Below are positions 3,220 to 33,473 of a stretch of DNA of 33,976 bases, in pieces (position 1 is the first letter of the stretch; each line of letters begins with the position of its first letter). Source of the DNA: an uncultured Gammaproteobacteria bacterium (GTDB lineage: Bacteria > Patescibacteriota > Microgenomatia > JAMCZE01); the NCBI GenBank assembly GCA_964603445.1, contig CAZRUW010000099.1:1-33976 (forward strand), given 5' to 3'. The position numbers and the translations under genes were made by a program. Below the pieces are notes generated by a model. It worked only from the letters and a program-made list of their open reading frames with translations. It had not been told where the DNA came from and searched no databases.

Positions 3220-3270
3220 ACATTCAAGAGTAATCTCGAATATAAGAACCTTGAGCTTTCGTTCAAGAAC

Positions 3271-3302
3271 CTTGCGGTCCTCGGCTTCGCCTGCGGGCCT
3301 AA
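3271..3302 (+). repeat. copy of the GNUCC/GGGNC hairpin element, in inverted orientation relative to the other copies
   Basis: The plus strand reads CTTGCGGTCCTCGGCTTCGCCTGCGGGCCTAA. This is the form the other copies show on the minus strand. Confidence 0.75.
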
Positions 3303-3326
3303 CAAATTTATTTGAAAATTGATTTG

Positions 3327-3376
3327 TTAGCCCTGAACACGATTAGTGCTCAGGCGCAAGCAACAAAGTTGCTTAT
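3327..3376 (-). repeat. divergent copy of the hairpin element
   Basis: The plus strand reads TTAGCCCTGAACACGATTAGTGCTCAGGCGCAAGCAACAAAGTTGCTTAT. It shares the TTAGCCC..GCGCAAGC..GCTTAT flanks with the 29772 copy and has its own apical stem. Confidence 0.55.
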
Positions 3377-3392
3377 ATTAGCGATTACTCTT

Positions 3393-5679: not shown

Positions 5680-5736
5680 TTAGGCCCGCACCCTGAGACA
5701 TCTCGAAGGGGAGGACCGCAATCACGAAGTGATTAT
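5680..5736 (-). repeat. copy of the GNUCC/GGGNC hairpin element (map|infA junction)
   Basis: The plus strand reads TTAGGCCCGCACCCTGAGACATCTCGAAGGGGAGGACCGCAATCACGAAGTGATTAT. The second hairpin (AATCAC-GAA-GTGATT) overlaps the map stop codon. Confidence 0.8.
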
Positions 5737-7291: not shown

Positions 7292-8578
7292 TCAGGATGA
7301 GAATTTTTCGTAAGACCTGGTGACCAGCATTGTTTCAAACTGACGGGCAGTTTCCAAAACGACAGAGACAACAATGAGAATACCGGTGCCCCCAATAGTC
7401 AGGGTGGCGACGTTGCTTATGCCCTGTACGAAAGATGGCAGAACAGCAATCAGTCCCAGAAAAACAGCCCCGGCCAAAGTGATGCGGGTAATTATATAGT
7501 TGAGATAGTTTGAGGTGGGAGTGCCGGGACGAATCCCGGGGATAAAGCCGCCGAATTTTTGGATTTCGGAGGATATTTTGGCGGGATTAAAAATGATGGC
7601 CGTGTAGAAATAGGTGAAACCGATGACCAAAAAGAAGTAGACAAGGTTGTAGACAAGGCTGCTTGGCTGGAAAAGCCGGGATAAGGCTTGGGCGGTTTGG
7701 GAGATAAAAGGATTGGGAACCTGGCTAAGGTATTGGCCCAAAAGGGAGGGAATTAAAACCAGGGAAACGGCAAAGATTATGGGGATAACCCCGGCCTGGT
7801 TGACCCGAAGGGGCAAAAAAGTTGACTGGCCGCCGTACATTTTGTTTCCCCGGACACGGCGGGCGTAAATGATGGGGATTTGGCGAGTGGCTTCATTAAC
7901 CAGAACAATGCCGGCAATAACCAGAAAACCAACCCCGGCAAAAGCCAAGAGATTTAGGAATTGCTCGCCGGTGACGACGGAAACTGTCTGGCCAACAATC
8001 ACCGGGAAGCGGCCAATGATGCCGCCAAAAATCAACATGGAAATGCCGTTGCCGATGCCGTACTCGGTAATGAGTTCCCCAAGCCACATGAGGAGAACGG
8101 TGCCGGCGCAAAGCGTGAGAATCAAAGAAATCAAGGTGATTGGTGAAAGGACGGAGATTATATTCTGGTTTTTCAAAAGAGCGTAGGTCCCCAAAGCCTG
8201 AAGAGCGGCCAGAGGAACCGTGATCATGCGGGCATACTGGTTAATTTGCCTTTGGCCATATTCCCCTTCTTTGGAAAGAGCTTCCAGTTTGGGAAAAACC
8301 ATCTGGAGAAGTTGAAGAATAATAGTAGCATTTATATAGGGGTTAAGGCCCAGAGCCATAACGGAAAAATTGGCCAGAGTGCCCCCGGAAAAAATGTCCA
8401 GAAGGCCCAGAAACTGGTTCTGATTGAAAAGCTGTTTTAAGGCCACCAGGTCAATGCCCGGTACGGGAATGTGGGCAAACAGCCGGAAGACAAAAAAAAT
8501 CAGCGCGGTGAAAATGATTCTTTTGCGCAGTTCGGGCGTTCGCCAAGCTGAGACTATTGGAGTTAGGATTTTATTCAC
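7292..8578 (-). CDS. secY: preprotein translocase subunit SecY
   Basis: 428 aa, multi-TM and SecY-like throughout. The start codon is GTG at 8576-8578. Confidence 0.94.
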
Positions 8579-11820: not shown

Positions 11821-11840
11821 GATCCGCCAGTTGGCGGATC
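11821..11840 (-). other. perfect 8-bp hairpin overlapping the rplF stop codon
   Basis: GATCCGCC-AGTT-GGCGGATC. No U-run follows it in mRNA sense. Confidence 0.6.
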
Positions 11841-12399
11841 ACTTTGCTCCTGCTGCACCTGCAGCTTTGGCCGCCTTGCCGGCCTTACGGCGAATTGCTT
11901 CCCCAATGTAGCGTATTCCCTTTCCTTTATATGGCTCCGGCGGCCGGATCCGCCGTACCTGGGCAGCTGCTTCCCCAACCAACTGCTTATCAATTCCTCG
12001 GATATTAATTTTCGTGTTATCAAAAACCTCAAAAGTTATTCCTTCCGGGGCAGGAAACTTGACAGGATGAGAAAAACCGACGTTAAGAACCAGAGTGTTT
12101 CCTTCAAGAGCGGCGCGATAGCCAACTCCCACTAATTCCAGTCCTTTATTCCAACCCTGAGTAGCGCCCAGAATCATGTTGGCTAAGAGAGTCCTGGTTA
12201 ACCCATGGAGGGCCTTGGCTTTTGGCGTTTCGGTTACTCTTTCAACAAGTACGTCCGACCCGGCGACACGAACCTTGACTTCAGGCCGAAATTCCTGACT
12301 CAAAGTACCCTTCGGCCCGGTAACCGAAACATGATTATTATCAATTTTAATAGTAATTTCTGAAGGAATTTTTACCGGTTTTGTGCCTATCCTGCTCAT
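11839..12399 (-). CDS. rplF: 50S ribosomal protein L6
   Basis: Starts MSRIGTKPVKIPSEITI at the ATG 12397-12399. The track ORF's 27-aa extension lies in a repeat spacer. The C-terminal tail is Ala/Lys-rich (KAGKAAKAAGAAGAK). Confidence 0.93.
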   Translation of the reverse strand: MSRIGTKPVKIPSEITIKIDNNHVSVTGPKGTLSQEFRPEVKVRVAGSDVLVERVTETPKAKALHGLTRTLLANMILGATQGWNKGLELVGVGYRAALEGNTLVLNVGFSHPVKFPAPEGITFEVFDNTKINIRGIDKQLVGEAAAQVRRIRPPEPYKGKGIRYIGEAIRRKAGKAAKAAGAAGAK

Positions 12400-15486: not shown

Positions 15487-16221
15487 TTAGTTACTGATTG
15501 TTTGTGTTACTGGTTGCTGATTACTGGTTGCCGGCAGACATATCCAGACTTTGACTCCGACATAACCGGAGCGGGTGTACGCCGGGTAGGCAGCAAAGTC
15601 AATTTTTTCCTTAACAGAACTTAGGGGGACTACTCCGGCCTGCTCATGTTCCACCCGAGCGATTTCCGCTCCGCCAATACGGCCCCCAAGCCGAACACGA
15701 ACACCTTTCGCTCCGGCGGCCATAACTCTTTCAACCGTTTGTTTGAGAACTCTTTTTGCAGGAAGTCTTTTCGCCAGTTGATCAGCAATGCTCACAGCCA
15801 CAAGTTGAGCATCAAGATTTGGCTCTTTTATCGGTTCGACTTTGATATCAACCTTGGGGGCGTTTTTTAGGCCCGCATCCCGCCGGCTGGCGGGAGAGGA
15901 CCGCAAGCTCTGCTTATCGCTGGTTTTGACTTTTAATAGTTGAGTCATAATATATTTTTTAAGGTCTTCCATTCCGGTCCCGCCGCGGCCAATGACAACC
16001 CCGGGCCTGGAAACATAGAGAATCAGGCCAATGCGATTAATTGACCGTTCTATTTCCACCCTGGCAATACCAGCCGGCTTGAGGCGGGTCATCAAGGCTT
16101 TGCGAATGCGCACGTCATCAAGCAGGAGGTTTTGGTACCTTTTGTCGGTGGCGAACCAACGGGACGTCCAGGTGTAGACTGGACCTAAACGAAAAGCGAT
16201 GGGATGAACTTTGTTACCCAT
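15487..16221 (-). CDS. rpsC: 30S ribosomal protein S3, carrying an in-frame repeat-element insertion
   Basis: Contains MGNKVHPIAFRLG and GGRIGGAEIAR. The extra segment DKQSLRSSPASRRDAGL is encoded by 15867-15918. Confidence 0.95.
   Translation of the reverse strand: MGNKVHPIAFRLGPVYTWTSRWFATDKRYQNLLLDDVRIRKALMTRLKPAGIARVEIERSINRIGLILYVSRPGVVIGRGGTGMEDLKKYIMTQLLKVKTSDKQSLRSSPASRRDAGLKNAPKVDIKVEPIKEPNLDAQLVAVSIADQLAKRLPAKRVLKQTVERVMAAGAKGVRVRLGGRIGGAEIARVEHEQAGVVPLSSVKEKIDFAAYPAYTRSGYVGVKVWICLPATSNQQPVTQTISN
15867..15918 (-). repeat. copy of the GNUCC/GGGNC hairpin element inside the rpsC coding sequence
   Basis: The plus strand reads TTAGGCCCGCATCCCGCCGGCTGGCGGGAGAGGACCGCAAGCTCTGCTTATC. It matches the 33433 copy at 21/22 over GAGGAYCGCAAGCTCTGCTTAT. 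Confidence 0.8.
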
Positions 16222-19498: not shown

Positions 19499-19562
19499 AT
19501 CAGGCTTCCCTACATCCGACTAAGTCAGTTAGTGAGTTTAGGGCTTACTAACATGTAGGGGA

Positions 19563-19592
19563 ATTATACCCCACGGGGTTAGGGGATTGCAA
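19563..19592 (-). promoter_or_regulatory. candidate promoter TTGCAA-N18-TATAAT in the rpsJ-rplC spacer
   Basis: On the minus strand, TTGCAA is at 19587-19592 and TATAAT at 19563-19568. The hexamers and spacing are identical to the candidate upstream of the tuf leader. Confidence 0.55.
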
Positions 19593-26029: not shown

Positions 26030-29000
26030 CTAGGTTTCAGTAACAAGCTTTTGAACTTCATTTCCTTCCAGACTGGCTCTTTCGGGAGATGTCGGAATTA
26101 GGCGGCCAATTATGACATTTTCTTTCAGGCCAATCAAATTGTCCTGGCCGGCACGAATAGCGACATCGGAAAGAACTTCGGTGGTGCGTTCAAAGGAAGC
26201 CGCCGAGAGCCAAGAGTCAGTGTAAAGAGCGGCCCGAGAAATACCAAGAATGGTTATCTGAGCCGTGGCCGGTTCTCCCCCGGCGGCGATGACCCGGGCA
26301 TTTTCGGCTTCAAACGCGGCTTTGTCCACAAACTCCCCAGGAAGGAAAACTGTGTCTCCGGAAGTGTCAATGCGCACTTTGTCAGACATTTTGCGGACAA
26401 TAACCTCAAAATGTTTGTCATTAATGGGGATTCCCTGAGATTCGTAAACAACCTGGAGCTCGTCAATAAGGTAGTGCTGGGCTCCAAAGAGACCACGGGT
26501 GGCCAAGACGTCTTTGATATCCAAATAGCCGGAGGTCAATTGAGTCCCGGCCGCAACAAGATCACCGTTGTCAACGCTGAGGGTCGCGGTCAAGGGAACA
26601 ATATATTCGCGCTCTTCAACGGGTTTGACACCGTGGCTGCGAACCCGAATTTTGAAGCCCTCCTCGGTCTCGATGACCTCAACCTTACCGGCAATCTCGG
26701 CAACGGGCGAAAGGATCTTTGGCGATCTGGTTTCAAAAATTTCTTCCACTCTAGGCAAACCTTGAGTCACGTCCTGAGCCACTACCCCTCCGGTGTGTTT
26801 GGTCCGCAGTGTCAGTTGGGTTCCCGGTTCGCCAATGGATTGGGCAGCCACAATGCCTACCGGAGTTCCAAGTTCGACCAGCTTTCGAGAGCTGAAGTCC
26901 CGACCATAACAAAGCTGGCAGAGACCATACTTGGCCTGACAGGTTAAAGGTGAACGAACCAAAACGGAGGTAATTTTTTCCTTCTCAATCTGGGGGAGAA
27001 GGTCTTCGGTAATTTCCTGACCGGCTTTGGCCAGAACCTTTTTCCCGGACTTGAGATCAACAGCCAAAATACGACCTAAAATGCGCTGGGGAAAAGTTGC
27101 GGCCCGTTTATCAGCAGCCGAGATTTCAATACCGTTTTTAGTGCCGCAGTCAGATAGACGAATGATGGCGTCGTGAGAAACGTCCACTAACCGGCGGGTA
27201 AGGTAACCGGCGTCGGCGGTTCTGAGGGCGGTATCAGCCAGACCTTTTCGTGATCCTCTGGTTCCGGTGACGTACTCAAACACTGACAGGCCTTCCCGGA
27301 AATTGGATTTGGTGGGAAGAGGCACAATTCTTCCGGTAGGGTCGTTCATCAGTCCCCGCATGCCGGAAATTTGCTTGACATTATCCTTGCTGGACTTGCC
27401 TGCCCCTGATTGGAGAATAACTTTCACAGCGTTGTCCAGCGGATAGGCCTCCCAGGTCAGGTCGGCAATTCTGTTAGTAATGTCAATCCATATGTCGATT
27501 TGCAGTTGGCGCATTTCTTCGGCAGTTATAAGACCGTTCTTGTAGTTTTCTTCCACCTCGGCACTCTCTTTTTCTCCTTGGGCGATAATTTCCTGTTTGT
27601 TACCGATCATAACCAGATCAAAAATGCCCACGGAAACTCCGGATTCCATGGAGCCGGTGAAACCAATTTCCTTAAGGTTATCCAAAAGGGACACCAGCTC
27701 CGAACGGGTGCAGACATCCATCGCCTGGTTGAGAAGAGATTTCAGCCGTGACAGATTGATAGTTTCGTTGACAAAACCAATAACCGGGGGAAGTTTTTCG
27801 CAGAGAAGGATTCGGCCGACAGTGGTTTCGACAATCGACTTATTTTGCCAAACTTTTATTTTTTGACGAAGAGCAATCTTTTTTTCCTGATAGGCTAGAA
27901 TCGCTTCGGCCATGTCAGCAAAAACGGTGGGGACAACAGCTTTTGATTCGTCGAGAGAAGTGTAGTAATAAATTCCCAGAATCATCTCCTTGTTGGGGAA
28001 GGCCACGGGCATGCTGTCAGCCGGTTTTAAGAGATTGTGTTCTGCCATCATTAAATTAACAGCTTCGCTTTTGGATTGAGAGGACAAGGGGACATGAACG
28101 GCCATTTGGTCGCCGTCAAAATCAGCGTTGTAGCCGGTGCAAACTAACGGGTGAACCTGGATAGCGGCACCCTCGATTAGAACAGGGAAAAAGGCCTGAA
28201 TTCCCAACTTGTGCAAAGTGGGCGCCCGATTGAGGAGAACCGGATGGTTTTTGGTAATTTCTTCCAAAATATCAAAAACTTCAGGGACTCTTTTTTCAAG
28301 AACGTACTTAGCCGAGCGAACATTGGGAGCAATCCCCCGAATAATCAGTTCCCGAAGAACAAAGGGCTTAAACATTTCCAGGGCCATTTCTTTGGGAAGA
28401 CCACACTCGGAAAGTTTCAGTTTGGGACCAACAACAATGACTGAGCGTCCGGAATAGTCAACACGTTTTCCCAAAAGATTCTGGCGGAACCTCCCTTGCT
28501 TGCCACGGAGCATATCCGAAAGACTTTTAAGTTCAGCCACGTTGGCCCGGGTGCTGGTTCGCTGGGTGGAATCAATTAAAGAATCGACAGCCTCCTGAAG
28601 CATGCGCTTTTCATTGCGCAAAATAATCTCCGGAGCTCCCAGATCAATCAGGTGTTTGAGACGGTTATTGCGGTTGATAACCCGACGGTAGAGGTCATTC
28701 AGATCAGAAGTGGCAAACCGACCGCCGGAGAGCTGAACCATAGGACGAAGATCGGGAGGAATAACCGGAAGAGTTTCCAGAACCATCCACTCCGGCCGGA
28801 CACCAGAGCGGCGCATACCATCAATCACCCGCAGCCGTTTGGTGGCTTTGACCTTTTTTTGGCTGGAGGAATCAAGGATTTCCTGACGCAGATCGGCAGT
28901 CATTTTTTCCAGATCCATCCGCCGAAGGATAGAAAGAATGGACTCCGCGCCCATAGAAACTTCGATAAAGTCAGCGGCATCGTATTCCGAAAGCTTGAGA

Positions 29001-29764
29001 TATTCTTCCTCTGTAATTTCAGTTACCGGTTTGACGCTTTTGACCAGATCCAGAAGAGCCCGATAAATTTCCGCGAGGCGGTTTTTTTCCAAAGCCAGAT
29101 CACTTTCCAGTTGGGCAATCTTTTGTTTGGTAGAAAGTTCTATCTCTTTGACAATGAGGTCGAATTGAGCTTTATCCTTGACTTTAGATTGTTGTTCTTT
29201 AACTTTGGCTTCCTGGTCATCTTCCTCTTTTTGAATTCTATTTTCATAATCGGCGATGAGGGATTTCTGACGTTCCTCCATCGTTTCTTTGAGATGGCCA
29301 ACGACTTTGTCTCTGGCAGATTCGTCAACGGAAAGGACTAAATAGGAAGCAAAATAGATGACATTCGAAAGAGATTTCGGGGAGAGATCCAGGATGAGAG
29401 AAAGCTTGGACGGGGCTCCCTTGAAGTACCAGACATGGGCAATGGGAACAGCCAAAGTAATGTGTCCCATCCGTTCACGACGAACTTTCGATTGAGTGAC
29501 TTCAACACCACATTTGTCACAGATTATCCCGCGGTAGCGGATCCGTTTGTATTTGCCACAGTAACATTCCCAGTCTTTGGTCGGACCAAAAATCGTTTCC
29601 GAAAAGAGGCCGTCCTTTTCGGGTTTAAGAGTGCGATAGTTAATCGTTTCCGGCTTAGTGACCTCGCCATGTGACCACGAGAGGATATCCTGGGGCGAGG
29701 CGAGGGAAATTTTTAACCCCTTAAAGTCGACAATATGATCGATGGTATCCTGTGGTTTATTCAT
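26030..29764 (-). CDS. rpoC: DNA-directed RNA polymerase beta' subunit
   Basis: Has the catalytic motif [16 protein letters not shown] chose the ATG at 29762-29764 ([16 protein letters not shown]); the track's 16-codon extension translates the spacer repeat element. Confidence 0.96.
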
Positions 29765-29771
29765 AATGGTT

Positions 29772-29826
29772 TTAGCCCCGCACCGAGTCTGACTCGGGAG
29801 GAGCGCAAGCACGCAAGCGCTTATTC
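29772..29826 (-). repeat. copy of the GNUCC/GGGNC hairpin element filling the rpoB|rpoC spacer
   Basis: The plus strand reads TTAGCCCCGCACCGAGTCTGACTCGGGAGGAGCGCAAGCACGCAAGCGCTTATTC. Its end overlaps the rpoB stop codon (29821-29823). Confidence 0.8.
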
Positions 29827-32800
29827 ATGAGACTCCTCAACTATTTCCTGGTCAGATTTTACTTCGGATATTTCAACGCCGCCGGTATCGGCTTCATGGG
29901 CAGATGTTTCTTCAGTATCAGTTTTGGCTTCGAGAACTTCCTCAAGTTGTTTTACTTCGACAGCAATTTTTTCCTCGGCTTTGTCATCGATGGGGGTAGA
30001 AATGGTAGTAGTAGTGGTAACGGGCGAAGCCGTAACCACTCCGGTCGGAGTCACAGAGAGAGCCAGGCTTTGAAGCTCCTTGACCAAGACTTTGAAGGAC
30101 TCCGGCACGGTGGACTGGGGAATATCCGTCCCTTTAACAATAGCCTCGAAAGCTTTGGCCCGGCCGACGACGTCGTCAGACTTAATAGTCAGCATTTCCT
30201 GAAGGGTATAAGCCGCCCGGTGGGCTTCCAGCGCCCAGACTTCCATTTCGCCAACCCGCTGGCCGCCCATCTGGGCTTTGCCACCAAGAGGTTGTTGGGT
30301 CACTAAAGAGTAAGGGCCGGTCGAGCGGGCATGGGTTTTGTCCTCGACCATGTGAATGAGTTTAACAATATAGCTTGTCCCGACAACCACTTTCTGGTCA
30401 AACGGTTCACCGGTGCGACCATCATAGACAACAGTCTTGCCGTCGGCGGGAAGATTAGCGTCGTGGAGAGCCTGAGTAATTTTTCCTTCCTGAGCTTTTT
30501 CAAAGACTGGGACATAGACCCTCTTTCCCAGCTTGTTCATGGCCCAACCAAGATGGGCTTCCAGGAGCTGGCCCAGGTTCATACGACCCAGGACAGAAAG
30601 GGGAGAAATAATAATGTCTATTGGGGTCCCATCGGCCAGGTGCGGCATGTCTGCCAGACTGACAATTCGGGAAATGACCCCTTTGTTCCCGTGGCGACCG
30701 GCGACTTTATCACCGACAGAGACCTTGCGCATTTGGGCCACTTTGACCTTTATCAATTTGTTTGTTCCTGGGGAAAGTTCATCGCCGGCTTCCTTATCAA
30801 GAATGGAGATGTCAATGACAGTACCTTTTTCCCCGTGAGGAACACGAAGAGAGGTGTCGCGAACTTCGCGGGCTTTCTCGCCAAAAATTGCCCGGAGGAG
30901 CCTTTCTTCAGCAGACAGTTCGGTTTCCCCTTTAGGAGCGATTTTTCCTACCAAAATGTCATTCGGGCCGACTTCAGCACCAATAACGACAATGCCGTTT
31001 TCATCCAGATTGGCCAGGTCTGATTCCCCGACATTAGGAATATCCCGAGTGATTTCTTCCGGCCCCAATTTAGTGTCGACGACTTCGCACTCATATTCCT
31101 CAATATGAATGCTGGTTAAGAGATCATCACGGACCAGGCGGTCGGACACAATAATGGCGTCTTCATAACCAAAGCCTTCAAAATGCATGTAGGCAATAGT
31201 TAGGTTGGTTCCCAGGGCCAGCTCCCCATTTTTGGCAGCCGGGCCATCAATAAGAAGAGAACCGGGCTGTATCTTGTCTCCAACGTTAACCAAAGGACGC
31301 TGGGTGTAACAAGCTCCGTTGGGATTGGTTCGCTGGAACTTGGTAATAAAGTACGTTTCCAGATTGCCATTGATCTTAATCTTGTCCTCGTCAGATTTCC
31401 TGTCCAAATCCTGCCTCACTTTGGGGTCTTTGGGGTCAATTTTAACGACTACTTTGCTGCCGTCAACATAGACCACTTCCCCAGCATGGCGGGCTCGGAC
31501 AACCCAACCCATAGACTGGGCCACAGCAGGCTCAACACCGGTTCCGACCAGCGGTGATTGGGGATTAACCAGAGGGACTGCCTGAGCTTGCATGTTAGAA
31601 CCCATGAGAGCACGAATGCCGTCGTCATGCTGTAAAAACGGGATAAGAGCGGCAGCTGTACCGACAACTTGGCGGGGAACACAGTCCACAAGATCCACTT
31701 CCACGCTGTCTACTTCCATAAATTCCCCTTTATATCGAACCGGGACCCGGGCATTTTGGAGAAAACCGTCATCGTCAATGGTCACTTCGGCGTGGGTAAT
31801 TTTGAGGTCACGCTCGTCATCGGCAGCCAGGTAAACAATGTCATCAGTGGCCCGAACTTTATTGTCGTTTTTTTCCACACGCCGATAAGGGGCAAGGAGA
31901 AAACCGTATTCGTCAACCTTGGCATAAAGACTCATGAAGGTGACCAAACCGATGTTCGGCCCTTCCGGAGAACGAACGGGGCAGATGCGGCTGTATTGCG
32001 AGGAGTTAATGTCGCGGATGGAAAAACTGGCCCGATCCCGAGAAATACCGCCAATCCCCATAACCGTAAGTTTTCGCAGATTGTCAACTTCGGAGAGGGG
32101 GTTGGTTTGGTCAAGAATGGAAGAAAGCTGGGAAGTGCGAAAAAATTCATTAATGGCAGAAATAATCGGCCGGGCATTAATAACCTGATTGGGCATAACC
32201 TTGCTCTTGGGATCCAGGAGGCTCATGCGCTCTTTAACCGCCCGCTCAAGGCGGAGAAGGCCGTCGCGAAAAGCCACGTTGCCAACCAGCTCTCCAACCC
32301 GGCGCAGCCGGCGATTGGCCAAATTATCGATGTCGTCGGTATAGGCTTGGGGGTCACCCTTTTGAAGTTTGATAAGGTATTTGATGGTGGCAATCAGGTC
32401 TTCCCGGGTGAGAACATGATTTTGGGCAATATTCTCCAAGTTGAGACCGAGACGCTTGTTCATTTTGTAGCGGCCGACCCGGCCGAGGTGATAACGGCGG
32501 GGGGAGAAAAACAGACCGTTAATGTAATCAATGGCGGTTTCAATGACAGCCGGTTCACCGGGGCGCATCTTTTTGTAGATTTCCATCGCACCCTCGCTTG
32601 ATCCGTGAGTGACATCCTTTTTCAAAGTGGCCTCGATATAGGAGTCGTCACCTGCGGGATCAACGTCAGAAAAGATCTTACGGATTTCTTCGTCAGAACC
32701 GATACCCACCGCCCGAAGAAAAGTGGTGACGGGAAATTTCCGGCGGCGATCAATACGTACCGAAAGAACGTTACTGCGGGAAACGTTAAACTCCAGCCAA

Positions 32801-33369
32801 CTGCCACGAAGAGGCCGGACTTCAGCAAAATAGAGCATCCGGCCGGTGACAGGATCAACATCACCCAAGAAATAGACACCGGCGGAGCGAACAAGTTGAT
32901 GAATGACAGCCCGTTCAATGCCGTTTATGATAAAAGTTCCGGCCGGAGTCATCACCGGCAGTTCGCCGAAGAAAACCTCCTGAGAAGTCACTTCGCCAGT
33001 TTGTTTGTTTAAGAGCCGGGCGGCAATACGAACTGGAATATCGAAAGTGACTCCCTTAGCAGCCGCAGTGGCGGCAGTGTATTTGGGGCTGCCGAAAGAG
33101 TATTGGCCCAGAGTGAGTTCCCAGTTTTTCCCGGTAAAGTCAGAAATGGGGGAAATTTCGGAAATCAGTTCGGTAATCCCTTCTTCCAAAAACTGCCTAT
33201 AAGAATCTTGTTGAACGGAGAGGAAGTTGAGTTCGGGAAGAGCACGGAAGTGATGACCCCAATAAAGACGCTCCTGAGGACTAGTTTCCGCAGACAAAAA
33301 CCGTCCTTCAAAGGACTTTTTAGCCGACGGATTGCTTTCAATAGTCGGTTTGGGTGATCTTCTCGCCAT
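29821..33369 (-). CDS. rpoB: DNA-directed RNA polymerase beta subunit
   Basis: 1182 aa with conserved blocks such as [12 protein letters not shown] and [15 protein letters not shown]. It has a ~72-aa Thr- and acid-rich C-terminal tail. Confidence 0.96.
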
Positions 33370-33432: not shown

Positions 33433-33473
33433 TTAGACCCGCAGCGCTAGCGAGGATCGCAAGCTCTGCTTAT
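33433..33473 (-). repeat. short copy of the GNUCC/GGGNC hairpin element in the rpoB 5' leader
   Basis: The plus strand reads TTAGACCCGCAGCGCTAGCGAGGATCGCAAGCTCTGCTTAT. Confidence 0.75.

Follow-up and report, generated by a model that had tools for sequence, protein, structure and literature searches.

In the window analyzed here, a 33,976-nucleotide stretch (contig CAZRUW010000099.1 of assembly GCA_964603445.1) that is a minus-strand block of ribosomal-protein and RNA polymerase genes, the spacer between rpoB and rpoC carries a hairpin that probably represents one copy of a miniature mobile repeat that landed there, and not a regulatory RNA specific to this operon. We consider it likely that the family to which this copy belongs is a non-autonomous, insertion-polymorphic mobile repeat of Candidatus Curtissbacteria and neighboring Microgenomates. 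The element is apparently an undescribed family, of the same kind as repetitive extragenic palindromic (REP) sequences and Rickettsia palindromic elements (RPEs), in Curtissbacteria-type bacteria of the candidate phyla radiation (CPR).

The flanking genes were identified via Pfam as rpoB (29821-33369, minus strand) and rpoC (26030-29764, minus strand, with its ATG at 29764-29762), and in the mRNA sense the spacer reads TAA gcgcttgcgtgcTTGCGCTCCTCCCGAGTCAGACTCGGTGCGGGGCTAA aaccatt ATG. Pfam matches likewise support the YceG-like gene, map, rpsD, and rpoA elsewhere in the window. The copy spans 29772..29823 on the minus strand (core at 29808-29772) and scored 32.4 bits (E 2e-13) against a covariance model that was built from 19 equal-length copies. 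Its 5' TAA (29823-29821) is the stop codon of rpoB, which pairs with a conserved TTG and closes a helix, P1 (UAAGCGC/GUGCUUG, 29823-29806); the stop codon therefore lies inside a second hairpin that was absent from the original prediction. Stem A follows, in which GCUCC (29804-29800) pairs with GGGGC (29779-29775), and then an internal loop of UC on one side and UGC on the other, an apical helix, P2 (CCGAGU-cag-ACUCGG, 29797-29783), and a 3' TAA (29774-29772). The element had been described as filling all 56 nt of the spacer and as overlapping the rpoB stop codon with its 3' end. Its actual extent is from the rpoB TAA to 29772, which leaves 7 nt (29771-29765) outside, and in the mRNA sense the overlapping end is the 5' end. 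The leftover aaccatt ahead of the rpoC ATG (29765..29771, minus strand) is native spacer; relatives have TAA-aacat-ATG or TAA-aaatt-ATG at this place. The predicted RNA fold of the spacer has a minimum free energy of -24.9 kcal/mol (z -2.85), and the z-scores were weaker on either strand when DNA parameters were used. A scan of positions 29500-30100 for intrinsic terminators and promoters returned no sites, and the hairpin is followed by A-rich sequence with no T run, so an intrinsic terminator was rejected.

The same pattern, TTGCG-N-TCCTC-[variable hairpin]-TGCGGG-N'-CTAA, is present in the window in five exact copies and one divergent copy. The flank motifs TGCGGGNCTAA and TTGCGNTCCTC each have exactly five matches with 0 mismatches, compared to an estimated chance expectation of <0.1 (10 fixed bases in 2 x 34 kb). 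All five copies that had been predicted were found at their positions, and they scored 32-61 bits (E 2e-13 to 3e-28) with the covariance model, which returned nothing else convincing in the window. The strongest copy lies inside rpsC (15867..15916, minus strand, core 15906-15867; 61.3 bits), where its predicted in-frame translation is (K)QSLRSSPASRRDAGLK. A second follows map (Peptidase_M24 in Pfam) directly (5680..5735, minus strand, core 5721-5680; 45 bits), with the map stop codon as its 5' TAA (5735-5733) and TAATCAC-ttc-GTGATTG as its P1. A third lies between a YceG-like gene, upstream of rpoB, and rpoB itself (33433..33472, minus strand, core 33462-33433; 36.3 bits; P1 TAAGC-aga-GCTTG), and a fourth lies between rpsD and rpoA on the plus strand (3243..3302, core 3272-3302; 38.9 bits; P1 TAAG...CTTG). 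The copies had all been described in the minus, or mRNA, sense, which is correct for four of them; the copy at 3272-3302 is antisense to the operon mRNA. The variable stem pair N:N' is G:C in three window copies (cores at 3272, 5721, and 15906), C:G in the rpoB-rpoC copy (29808), and A:T in the copy at 33462, which reproduces the three Watson-Crick types reported before, and the neighboring pair is T.G in all five. The divergent sixth copy (3327..3375, minus strand) has inverted repeats I1/I2, the sequence TAAGCAAC-ttt-GTTGCTTG-CGCC-TGAGCAC-taatc-GTGTTCA-GGGCTAA, and a covariance-model score that is only marginal. It stands tail to tail with the plus-strand copy at 3243..3302, and together they form a palindromic doublet of ~167 nt (3226-3392) between rpsD and rpoA. 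The outer flanks of this doublet (AAGAGTAATC.CGAATATAAG) are likewise inverted repeats, and the layout is REPIN-like. Weak covariance-model matches at 7417-7449, 19564-19592, and 11823-11838 were not copies on inspection. Separately, a solo perfect hairpin, GATCCGCCAACTGGCGGATC, stands right after a TGA stop codon at 11823-11842 (minus strand); it resembles the P2 subfamily TCCGCCAGCTGGCGGA and is without the conserved flanks.

Across genomes, the full unit can be written as 5'-TAA-[P1 hairpin]-TTG-C-[GNTCC-TC-P2-TGC-GGGN'C]-TAA-3'. Its length is 45-75 nt, it lacks terminal inverted repeats (TIRs), and its conserved core is ~20 nt. P1 is a variable helix of 5-13 bp closed by TAA/TTG, stem A pairs G-N-T-C-C with G-G-G-N'-C, the loop is TC/TGC, and P2 is variable. 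The unit ends, TAAGCAGAGC and TTAGGCCCGC, are identical at 5 of 10 positions as judged by eye. The covariance model returned 125 matches (105 distinct) from 100 sources with E values of 1e-5 to 1e-29, and 95.9% of the paired cells in the resulting alignment were indeed paired. Among the 105 distinct copies, N:N' (pair 6:72) was GC in 79, AU in 10, CG in 7, GU in 6, and another combination in 3, and all seven pairs of the apical helix covaried. The observed covariation score was reached by none of 500 shuffles, and the signal was abolished by sliding the partners. Given that N:N' carries at least two Watson-Crick types in six of nine P2 subfamilies, one of which has GC, AC, and AT together, the double changes must have arisen repeatedly and independently. 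These compensatory pairs bear out the earlier claim of selection on structure over primary sequence. The fold is also strand specific, as had been argued from the U.G pair: T.G is found without exception, and intermediates of the G:T type are ~6 times as frequent as those of the A:C type. For P1, the best TTG-anchored helix starts with TAA in 86 of 113 distinct copies, compared to a mean of 26.7 (maximum 38) in shuffles and 17% of random genomic TTGs, and it reaches 7-13 bp in 34 copies compared to 8.3 in shuffles. The P1 arms are unrelated between copies (e.g., TAAGTAACC/GGTTACTTG, TAATCATC/GATGATTG, and TAAACAAGGTTTA/TAAACCTTGTTTG), and in 71 of 119 copies the length of P2 is divisible by three. 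The apical hairpin had been called completely different in each copy, which is true within the window; across genomes it falls into recurrent subfamilies. Similarly, of the UCCUC that was said to be exposed beside the stem, the UC does lie in the internal loop, whereas the UCC is paired in stem A.

The insertion polymorphism of the element is clearest in rpsC. In a multiple alignment, the window protein has 16 extra residues, QSLRSSPASRRDAGLK, compared to its closest homologs, including one that is 88% identical (P0002, locus L114). The empty site in L114 reads GAT GAT AAA AAC, while the window reads GAT AAG CAG AGC TTG CGG ... GGC CTA AAA AAC, which is 48 nt more and in frame. In L115, which is more distantly related, this rpsC site is occupied by a 39-nt copy whose P2 is different. 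The rplD/rplW junction of L115 is also filled, whereas in the window these genes overlap as ATGA. At the rpoB-rpoC junction, the element was found in none of 80 relatives (rpoC N termini 42-59% identical), whose spacers are mostly -8 to +5 nt, and a conserved feature of this junction was thus ruled out. Given these short, element-free spacers, the 56-nt spacer is read as TAA plus a 49-nt insertion plus aaccatt; the ancestral short spacer is a reconstruction from these more distant relatives, with no near-identical empty allele recovered.

We then consider where the copies sit, for which 119 exact copies in CPR loci were placed relative to open reading frames (ORFs) of at least 120 amino acids. 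Copies inside ORFs were sense in 19 cases and antisense in 15, so that ~29% (34/119) are intragenic, in either orientation. Between codirectional genes, 16 were sense and 8 antisense, and a further 10 lay between convergent and 3 between divergent genes. Hosts of intragenic copies that were confirmed via Pfam are transketolase, ArgRS, an EF-Tu-family GTPase domain, trigger factor, GT2, and a class-I aminoacyl-tRNA synthetase (aaRS), and S3 is a further host; the trigger factor copy is at the same site in two genomes, as is the antisense copy in GT2. All 19 sense intragenic copies are read in the frame TTG CGG TCC (..LRSS..AGLK..), which for a unit of in-frame length is the only one where neither TAA is a stop codon. 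About one-third of the copies are antisense to local genes, including the plus-strand copy at 3243-3302. The folding strand is on the gene-rich strand in 81 copies versus 36 (n = 117) and on the G-rich strand in 78 versus 36 (n = 114), a 2:1 bias that is as expected for lagging-strand-template targeting and is not specific to it. Many copies begin 1-30 nt past a gene end, and the distance to the next start codon is unconstrained.

Copies also occur in tandem arrays (L031, L058, and L104). In L053, the P2 loop (..GATAA|ACTC..) is split by a 21-nt unit, GCAGAGCTTTTCTTCGAATAA, which constitutes a nested insertion. This 21-nt unit A is itself a repeat, GCA(A/G)AGCTTTTCT(G/A/T)CGAATAA, that is preceded by (A)TAA in every case and has ATAA at its end. 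It was found singly, in tandems of period 21, abutting the main element, nested in the P2 loop, and once in frame in rplL (DKQSFSTNK); its sites are L031:1652-1968, L037, L044:3422-3484, L053:1559-1579 and 2140-2181, L105:6977-7018, and L202:2020-2040.

When one genome of each GTDB species was scanned for the pattern, there were at least 111 loci with exact matches among the matches listed, and nearly all hosts among these were metagenome-assembled genomes (MAGs) of Candidatus Curtissbacteria or other Microgenomates, with a few labeled Levyibacteriota, Blackburnbacteria, Gottesmanbacteria, Roizmanbacteria, WWE3, or "Saccharimonadales." Pattern matches outside CPR (L008, L015, L021, L032, L069, and L083, from Planctomycetes, BRC1, Nanohaloarchaea, and Actinomycetes) had no hairpin and were treated as chance. 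Copy number per genome was seen as five to six copies on the 34-kb contig studied here and as multiple loci per MAG. Numerous MAGs titled "uncultured Gammaproteobacteria" are among the element bearers (L004, L006, L014, L018, L024, L026, L028, L031, and others; records CAY*/CAZ*). The Curtissbacteria element lies on contigs under these titles, some of which (L062 and L087) also have a Microgenomates-type Y1_Tnp gene, and we suspect that the titles are a wrong taxonomy label. Rfam, which had been named as the means to exclude a known family, contained no matching family: the window had no match at the gathering score, 17 further loci had only tRNAs, none of which overlapped the element, and the rpoB-rpoC spacer at E values up to 10 gave sub-threshold noise only, with no ribozyme likeness. 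In the literature on CPR, Microgenomates, and Curtissbacteria repeats and on comparable small repeats, no published description of the family was found, and an earlier description is possible. The original prediction was to fail if the element turned out to be a known REP or MITE (miniature inverted-repeat transposable element) family with a DNA-level function only. The element does prove to be a REP/MITE-like repeat in kind; the family is not a known one.

One alternative is a cis-acting RNA of polycistronic mRNAs that was selected in place, for example, as an RNase processing or stability hairpin, a coupling or decoupling device, or a mimic or sequestrator of the Shine-Dalgarno (SD) sequence. 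The stable fold of the rpoB-rpoC spacer, the pairing on the top strand only with its invariant U.G and excess of GU over AC, the 2:1 sense orientation, and the numerous copies just past gene ends are all consistent with such a role, and the same-site trigger factor copies (L073 and L075) differ by compensatory changes, which is compatible with selection after insertion. We nevertheless regard it as unlikely, given that orthologous junctions in relatives are without the element, that about one-third of the copies are antisense, that intragenic copies occur in either orientation, that copies occur in tandem and nested, and that fold conservation appears equal in antisense copies. The variable start-codon distance, the lack of a terminator-like T run, and the lack of an Rfam family also speak against it. 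The speculative proposal of SD sequestration or mimicry fared no better: UCCUC is equally present in antisense and intragenic copies, and since the distance to the start codon varies, such a general role is without support. The claim that an RNA structure is under selection in the operon transcript therefore holds for the structure and not for the operon device. Individual sense copies may still have a role in regulation or processing, but no result here requires one.

It is highly improbable that the element is mobile or catalytic at the RNA level, for example, as a small ribozyme-like or retro-mobile RNA whose junction would be the catalytic or recognition core and whose helices would be a scaffold. 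Invariant junctions with freely covarying P1, stem A, and P2 are typical of structured RNAs, and no DNA transposase was found linked to the element. Set against this are the lack of Rfam ribozyme likeness at permissive thresholds, a conserved core of merely ~20 nt, the lack of a reverse transcriptase among the recurrent neighboring protein families, and DNA-level precedents for insertion at TAA. Finally, although short GC-rich hairpins are common after genes, as at 11823-11842, the probability that these are chance hairpins or ordinary gene-end stem-loops that form no family is negligible, given the five exact matches to each of two 10-base flank patterns in 34 kb, the 125 covariance-model matches, and the outcome of the 500 shuffles.

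Under the mobile-repeat reading, a copy would land directly 3' of a pre-existing (A)TAA, which here would be the rpoB stop codon, and the 49-nt copy would have turned an ancestral spacer of ~7 nt into a structured one of 56 nt. Because the unit starts past one TAA and has another at its end, a copy that inserts behind a stop codon does no harm, and within genes a copy can survive in one reading frame when its length is divisible by three. Given that orthologous sites are empty and that the antisense third of the copies has the same conserved architecture, the fold appears to be needed for propagation and to be inherited by each copy; the stem covariation most likely reflects a single-strand fold that is needed for mobilization and not a function at the landing site. 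We speculate, on the analogy of known systems, that the top strand is processed as single-stranded DNA by an HUH/Y1 enzyme of the IS200/IS605 or RAYT type, for which stem A and the asymmetric loop would form the protein-binding module and the TTG 5' of the hairpin foot would serve as guide by pairing with a TAA cleavage site at each end. For the rpoBC mRNA, the side effects would be the loss of tight translational coupling and the gain of a stable intercistronic hairpin. It is rather doubtful, yet conceivable, that the family exemplifies a hitherto unrecognized class of ultra-small (21-75 nt), structure-recognized, TAA-bounded mobile elements in CPR, which would sit in frame in essential genes (S3, L7/L12, aaRSs, and trigger factor) and have a minimal single-hairpin design with TTG as guide and TAA as cleavage site, with the enzyme being another one or a resident Y1-HUH protein that acts in trans on substrates different from the hairpins at its own flanks.

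Candidates for such an enzyme were sought via tblastn with TnpA and RAYT queries. Y1_Tnp (PF01797, above threshold) was present in 4 of ~105 element-bearing 8-kb loci. The genes (L062:2126-2776, L093:145-828, L045:6694-7341, L087:288-938, and those of L197-L204) match NCBIfam REP_Tyr_transpos at 3e-16, which is below the model cutoff, and fall into three diverged types (the L062, L093, and L087 types), all widespread in Microgenomates. Two of the types are in conserved neighborhoods, either beside a UvrD/AddB-like helicase or directly after rplL, and the genes look like domesticated RAYT-type genes. L087 alone has copies of the element, three in number, within 100-600 nt of its Y1_Tnp gene. 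Clustering of the ORFs of 105 loci returned housekeeping families and the 4-member Y1_Tnp cluster only.

Several observations weigh against the mobile-repeat reading. In the 10 loci whose gene flanks were read (L062, L093, L087, L045, L197, L198, and L200-L204, with L199 duplicating L198), the Y1_Tnp genes are bracketed by their own lineage-specific hairpins and not by the element. One such flank hairpin, TTAGGGGTTTAACCCCTAA (TAGGGG...CCCCTA), was found only beside the gene, 12 times in 1.17 Mb. With all three types flanked by other hairpins, Y1_Tnp/RAYT was rejected as the cognate flanked enzyme, and trans-mobilization by Y1_Tnp is possible but unsupported. No autonomous partner or enzyme was tied to the element. 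The 2:1 sense bias could equally stem from RNA-level selection, and the variability of P1 and P2 within one genome is far above that of classical REPs. The 5' TAA is the stop codon of an ORF of at least 80 codons in only 8 of 83 copies, and stop-codon targeting was therefore rejected in favor of TAA as such. In the only two junctions that were resolved, those of the rpsC copy and the nested L053 copy, ATAA precedes the insertion and TAA(A) forms the end of the unit; the insertion length is the TAA-to-TAA distance plus 1 nt, with microhomology of AA in rpsC and of ATAA in L053, and no textbook cut-and-paste geometry fits exactly. A MITE model with TIRs and a target-site duplication (TSD) was rejected, given that the ends are not inverted repeats and that the duplication length is inconsistent. 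Solo half-sites as the ends of a long autonomous element were also rejected, as they were only degenerate copies and chance matches. In addition, MAG fragments are the sole data source for all of the results, and no transposition event was directly observed.

The element shares features with several described systems. RPEs colonize housekeeping genes in frame (PMC10969869), and like them the element is a small palindromic selfish repeat of a reduced-genome host that sits in frame in unrelated housekeeping genes and is translated as a conserved peptide. It is smaller by a factor of three to four (45-75 nt, compared to ~100-150), has a CPR host, and differs in its two-helix design with hypervariable stems, a fixed junction, and TAA boundaries on either side. 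In-frame copies in antisense orientation are common as well. There is no obvious resemblance to RPEs in sequence, with no sequence search against them having been made. By the definition used here (PMC6006769), REPs carry the conserved tetranucleotide GT[AG]G at a distance of 0-2 nt on the 5' side of the hairpin foot. As in REP, BIME, and REPIN sequences, the element is a short imperfect palindrome with a bulge or loop and a tag at the hairpin foot, and it forms an inverted doublet (3226-3392); as in REP/RAYT systems, it lies mostly just downstream of genes, with Y1_Tnp genes in the same genomes. Unlike in REPs, the tag is TTGC (top) or TTAG (bottom) and not GT[AG]G, the stem of the bottom TTAG-N'CCC contains a C.A mismatch, 29% of copies lie within genes instead of being extragenic, and the Y1_Tnp genes are not flanked by the element. 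Stem sequences vary strongly even in one genome and the junction is conserved from genus to genus, which is the opposite of REPs.

IS200/IS605 and REP/RAYT systems recognize their cleavage sites through pairing with a guide beside the hairpin foot (PMC6006769). The element resembles IS200/IS605 in that it has no TIRs, no regular target duplication, a strand-specific fold, a 3' end that repeats the TAA motif, and, ahead of the hairpin foot, a TTG with complementarity to the TAA at either end; in the two resolved junctions, insertion is 3' of this short target. Unlike in IS200/IS605, no full-length insertion sequence with these ends was found, the element is far shorter than a left-end and right-end (LE+RE) pair, and its hairpin sequence is not conserved. 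The SDR elements of Elhai et al. (2008) are reportedly very small dispersed repeats of cyanobacteria; they are likewise mobile-looking, tens of nucleotides long, nested or in tandem, with hairpin potential and no known enzyme, and the 21-nt unit A is in the same size class. They differ in sequence and hosts, and a defined two-helix junction and TAA boundaries characterize the present family. MIRU are operon-spacer repeats, and like these and the Correia/NEMIS MITEs the element is non-autonomous, lies between operon genes, and is able to change intercistronic spacing and mRNA structure; unlike them, it lacks TIRs and a fixed TSD, and its composition is GC-rich, not AT-rich. Integron attC sites were rejected upon inspection of the 119 copies, given that most have TTTAGGC and not GTTRRRY, that there is no RYYYAAC partner, and that the copies are not in cassette arrays. 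The element is set apart by its size, its TAA boundaries, a genus-spanning junction combined with hypervariable helices, and its host phylum.

These findings suggest that intercistronic hairpins in CPR genomes, together with inserts of 13-16 residues of the form LRSS...AGLK, should be annotated as repeat insertions and not as regulatory RNAs or protein adaptations. The family would represent a second, phylogenetically remote case of RPE-like in-frame colonization of housekeeping genes, and as probable active parasites in genomes of ~1 Mb its copies could be natural markers for strain-level population studies. A unit of ~50 nt with a ~20-nt conserved junction and drifting helices may also be a compact system for determining the minimal structure needed for mobilization. 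At the locus studied here, the tight rpoB-rpoC coupling of relatives has been replaced by a 56-nt structured spacer without an obvious SD sequence, which may affect the ratio of beta to beta' expression.

Other structured sequences were observed alongside the element. Upstream of rplC (~19508-19592, minus strand, and also L115 at ~2890-2950), a promoter-like TTGCAA-18-TATAAT is followed by a conserved leader stem, CCCTACAT...ATGTAGGG. This stem is common to the window and its relative L115, has no Rfam match, and may be a ribosomal-protein leader. Between rpsJ and rplC, L115 has an extra ORF of 117 amino acids (L115:2400-2753) with no Pfam match, and the window has a non-coding spacer of ~220 nt in its place. 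Another hairpin family, ...ATATCAGCAGGTCGC...GCGCTCCTCTGATAT..., which is distinct from the element, was seen in Curtissbacteria loci (L010, L043, L053:576, L110:4047, and L009:2991 on the minus strand).

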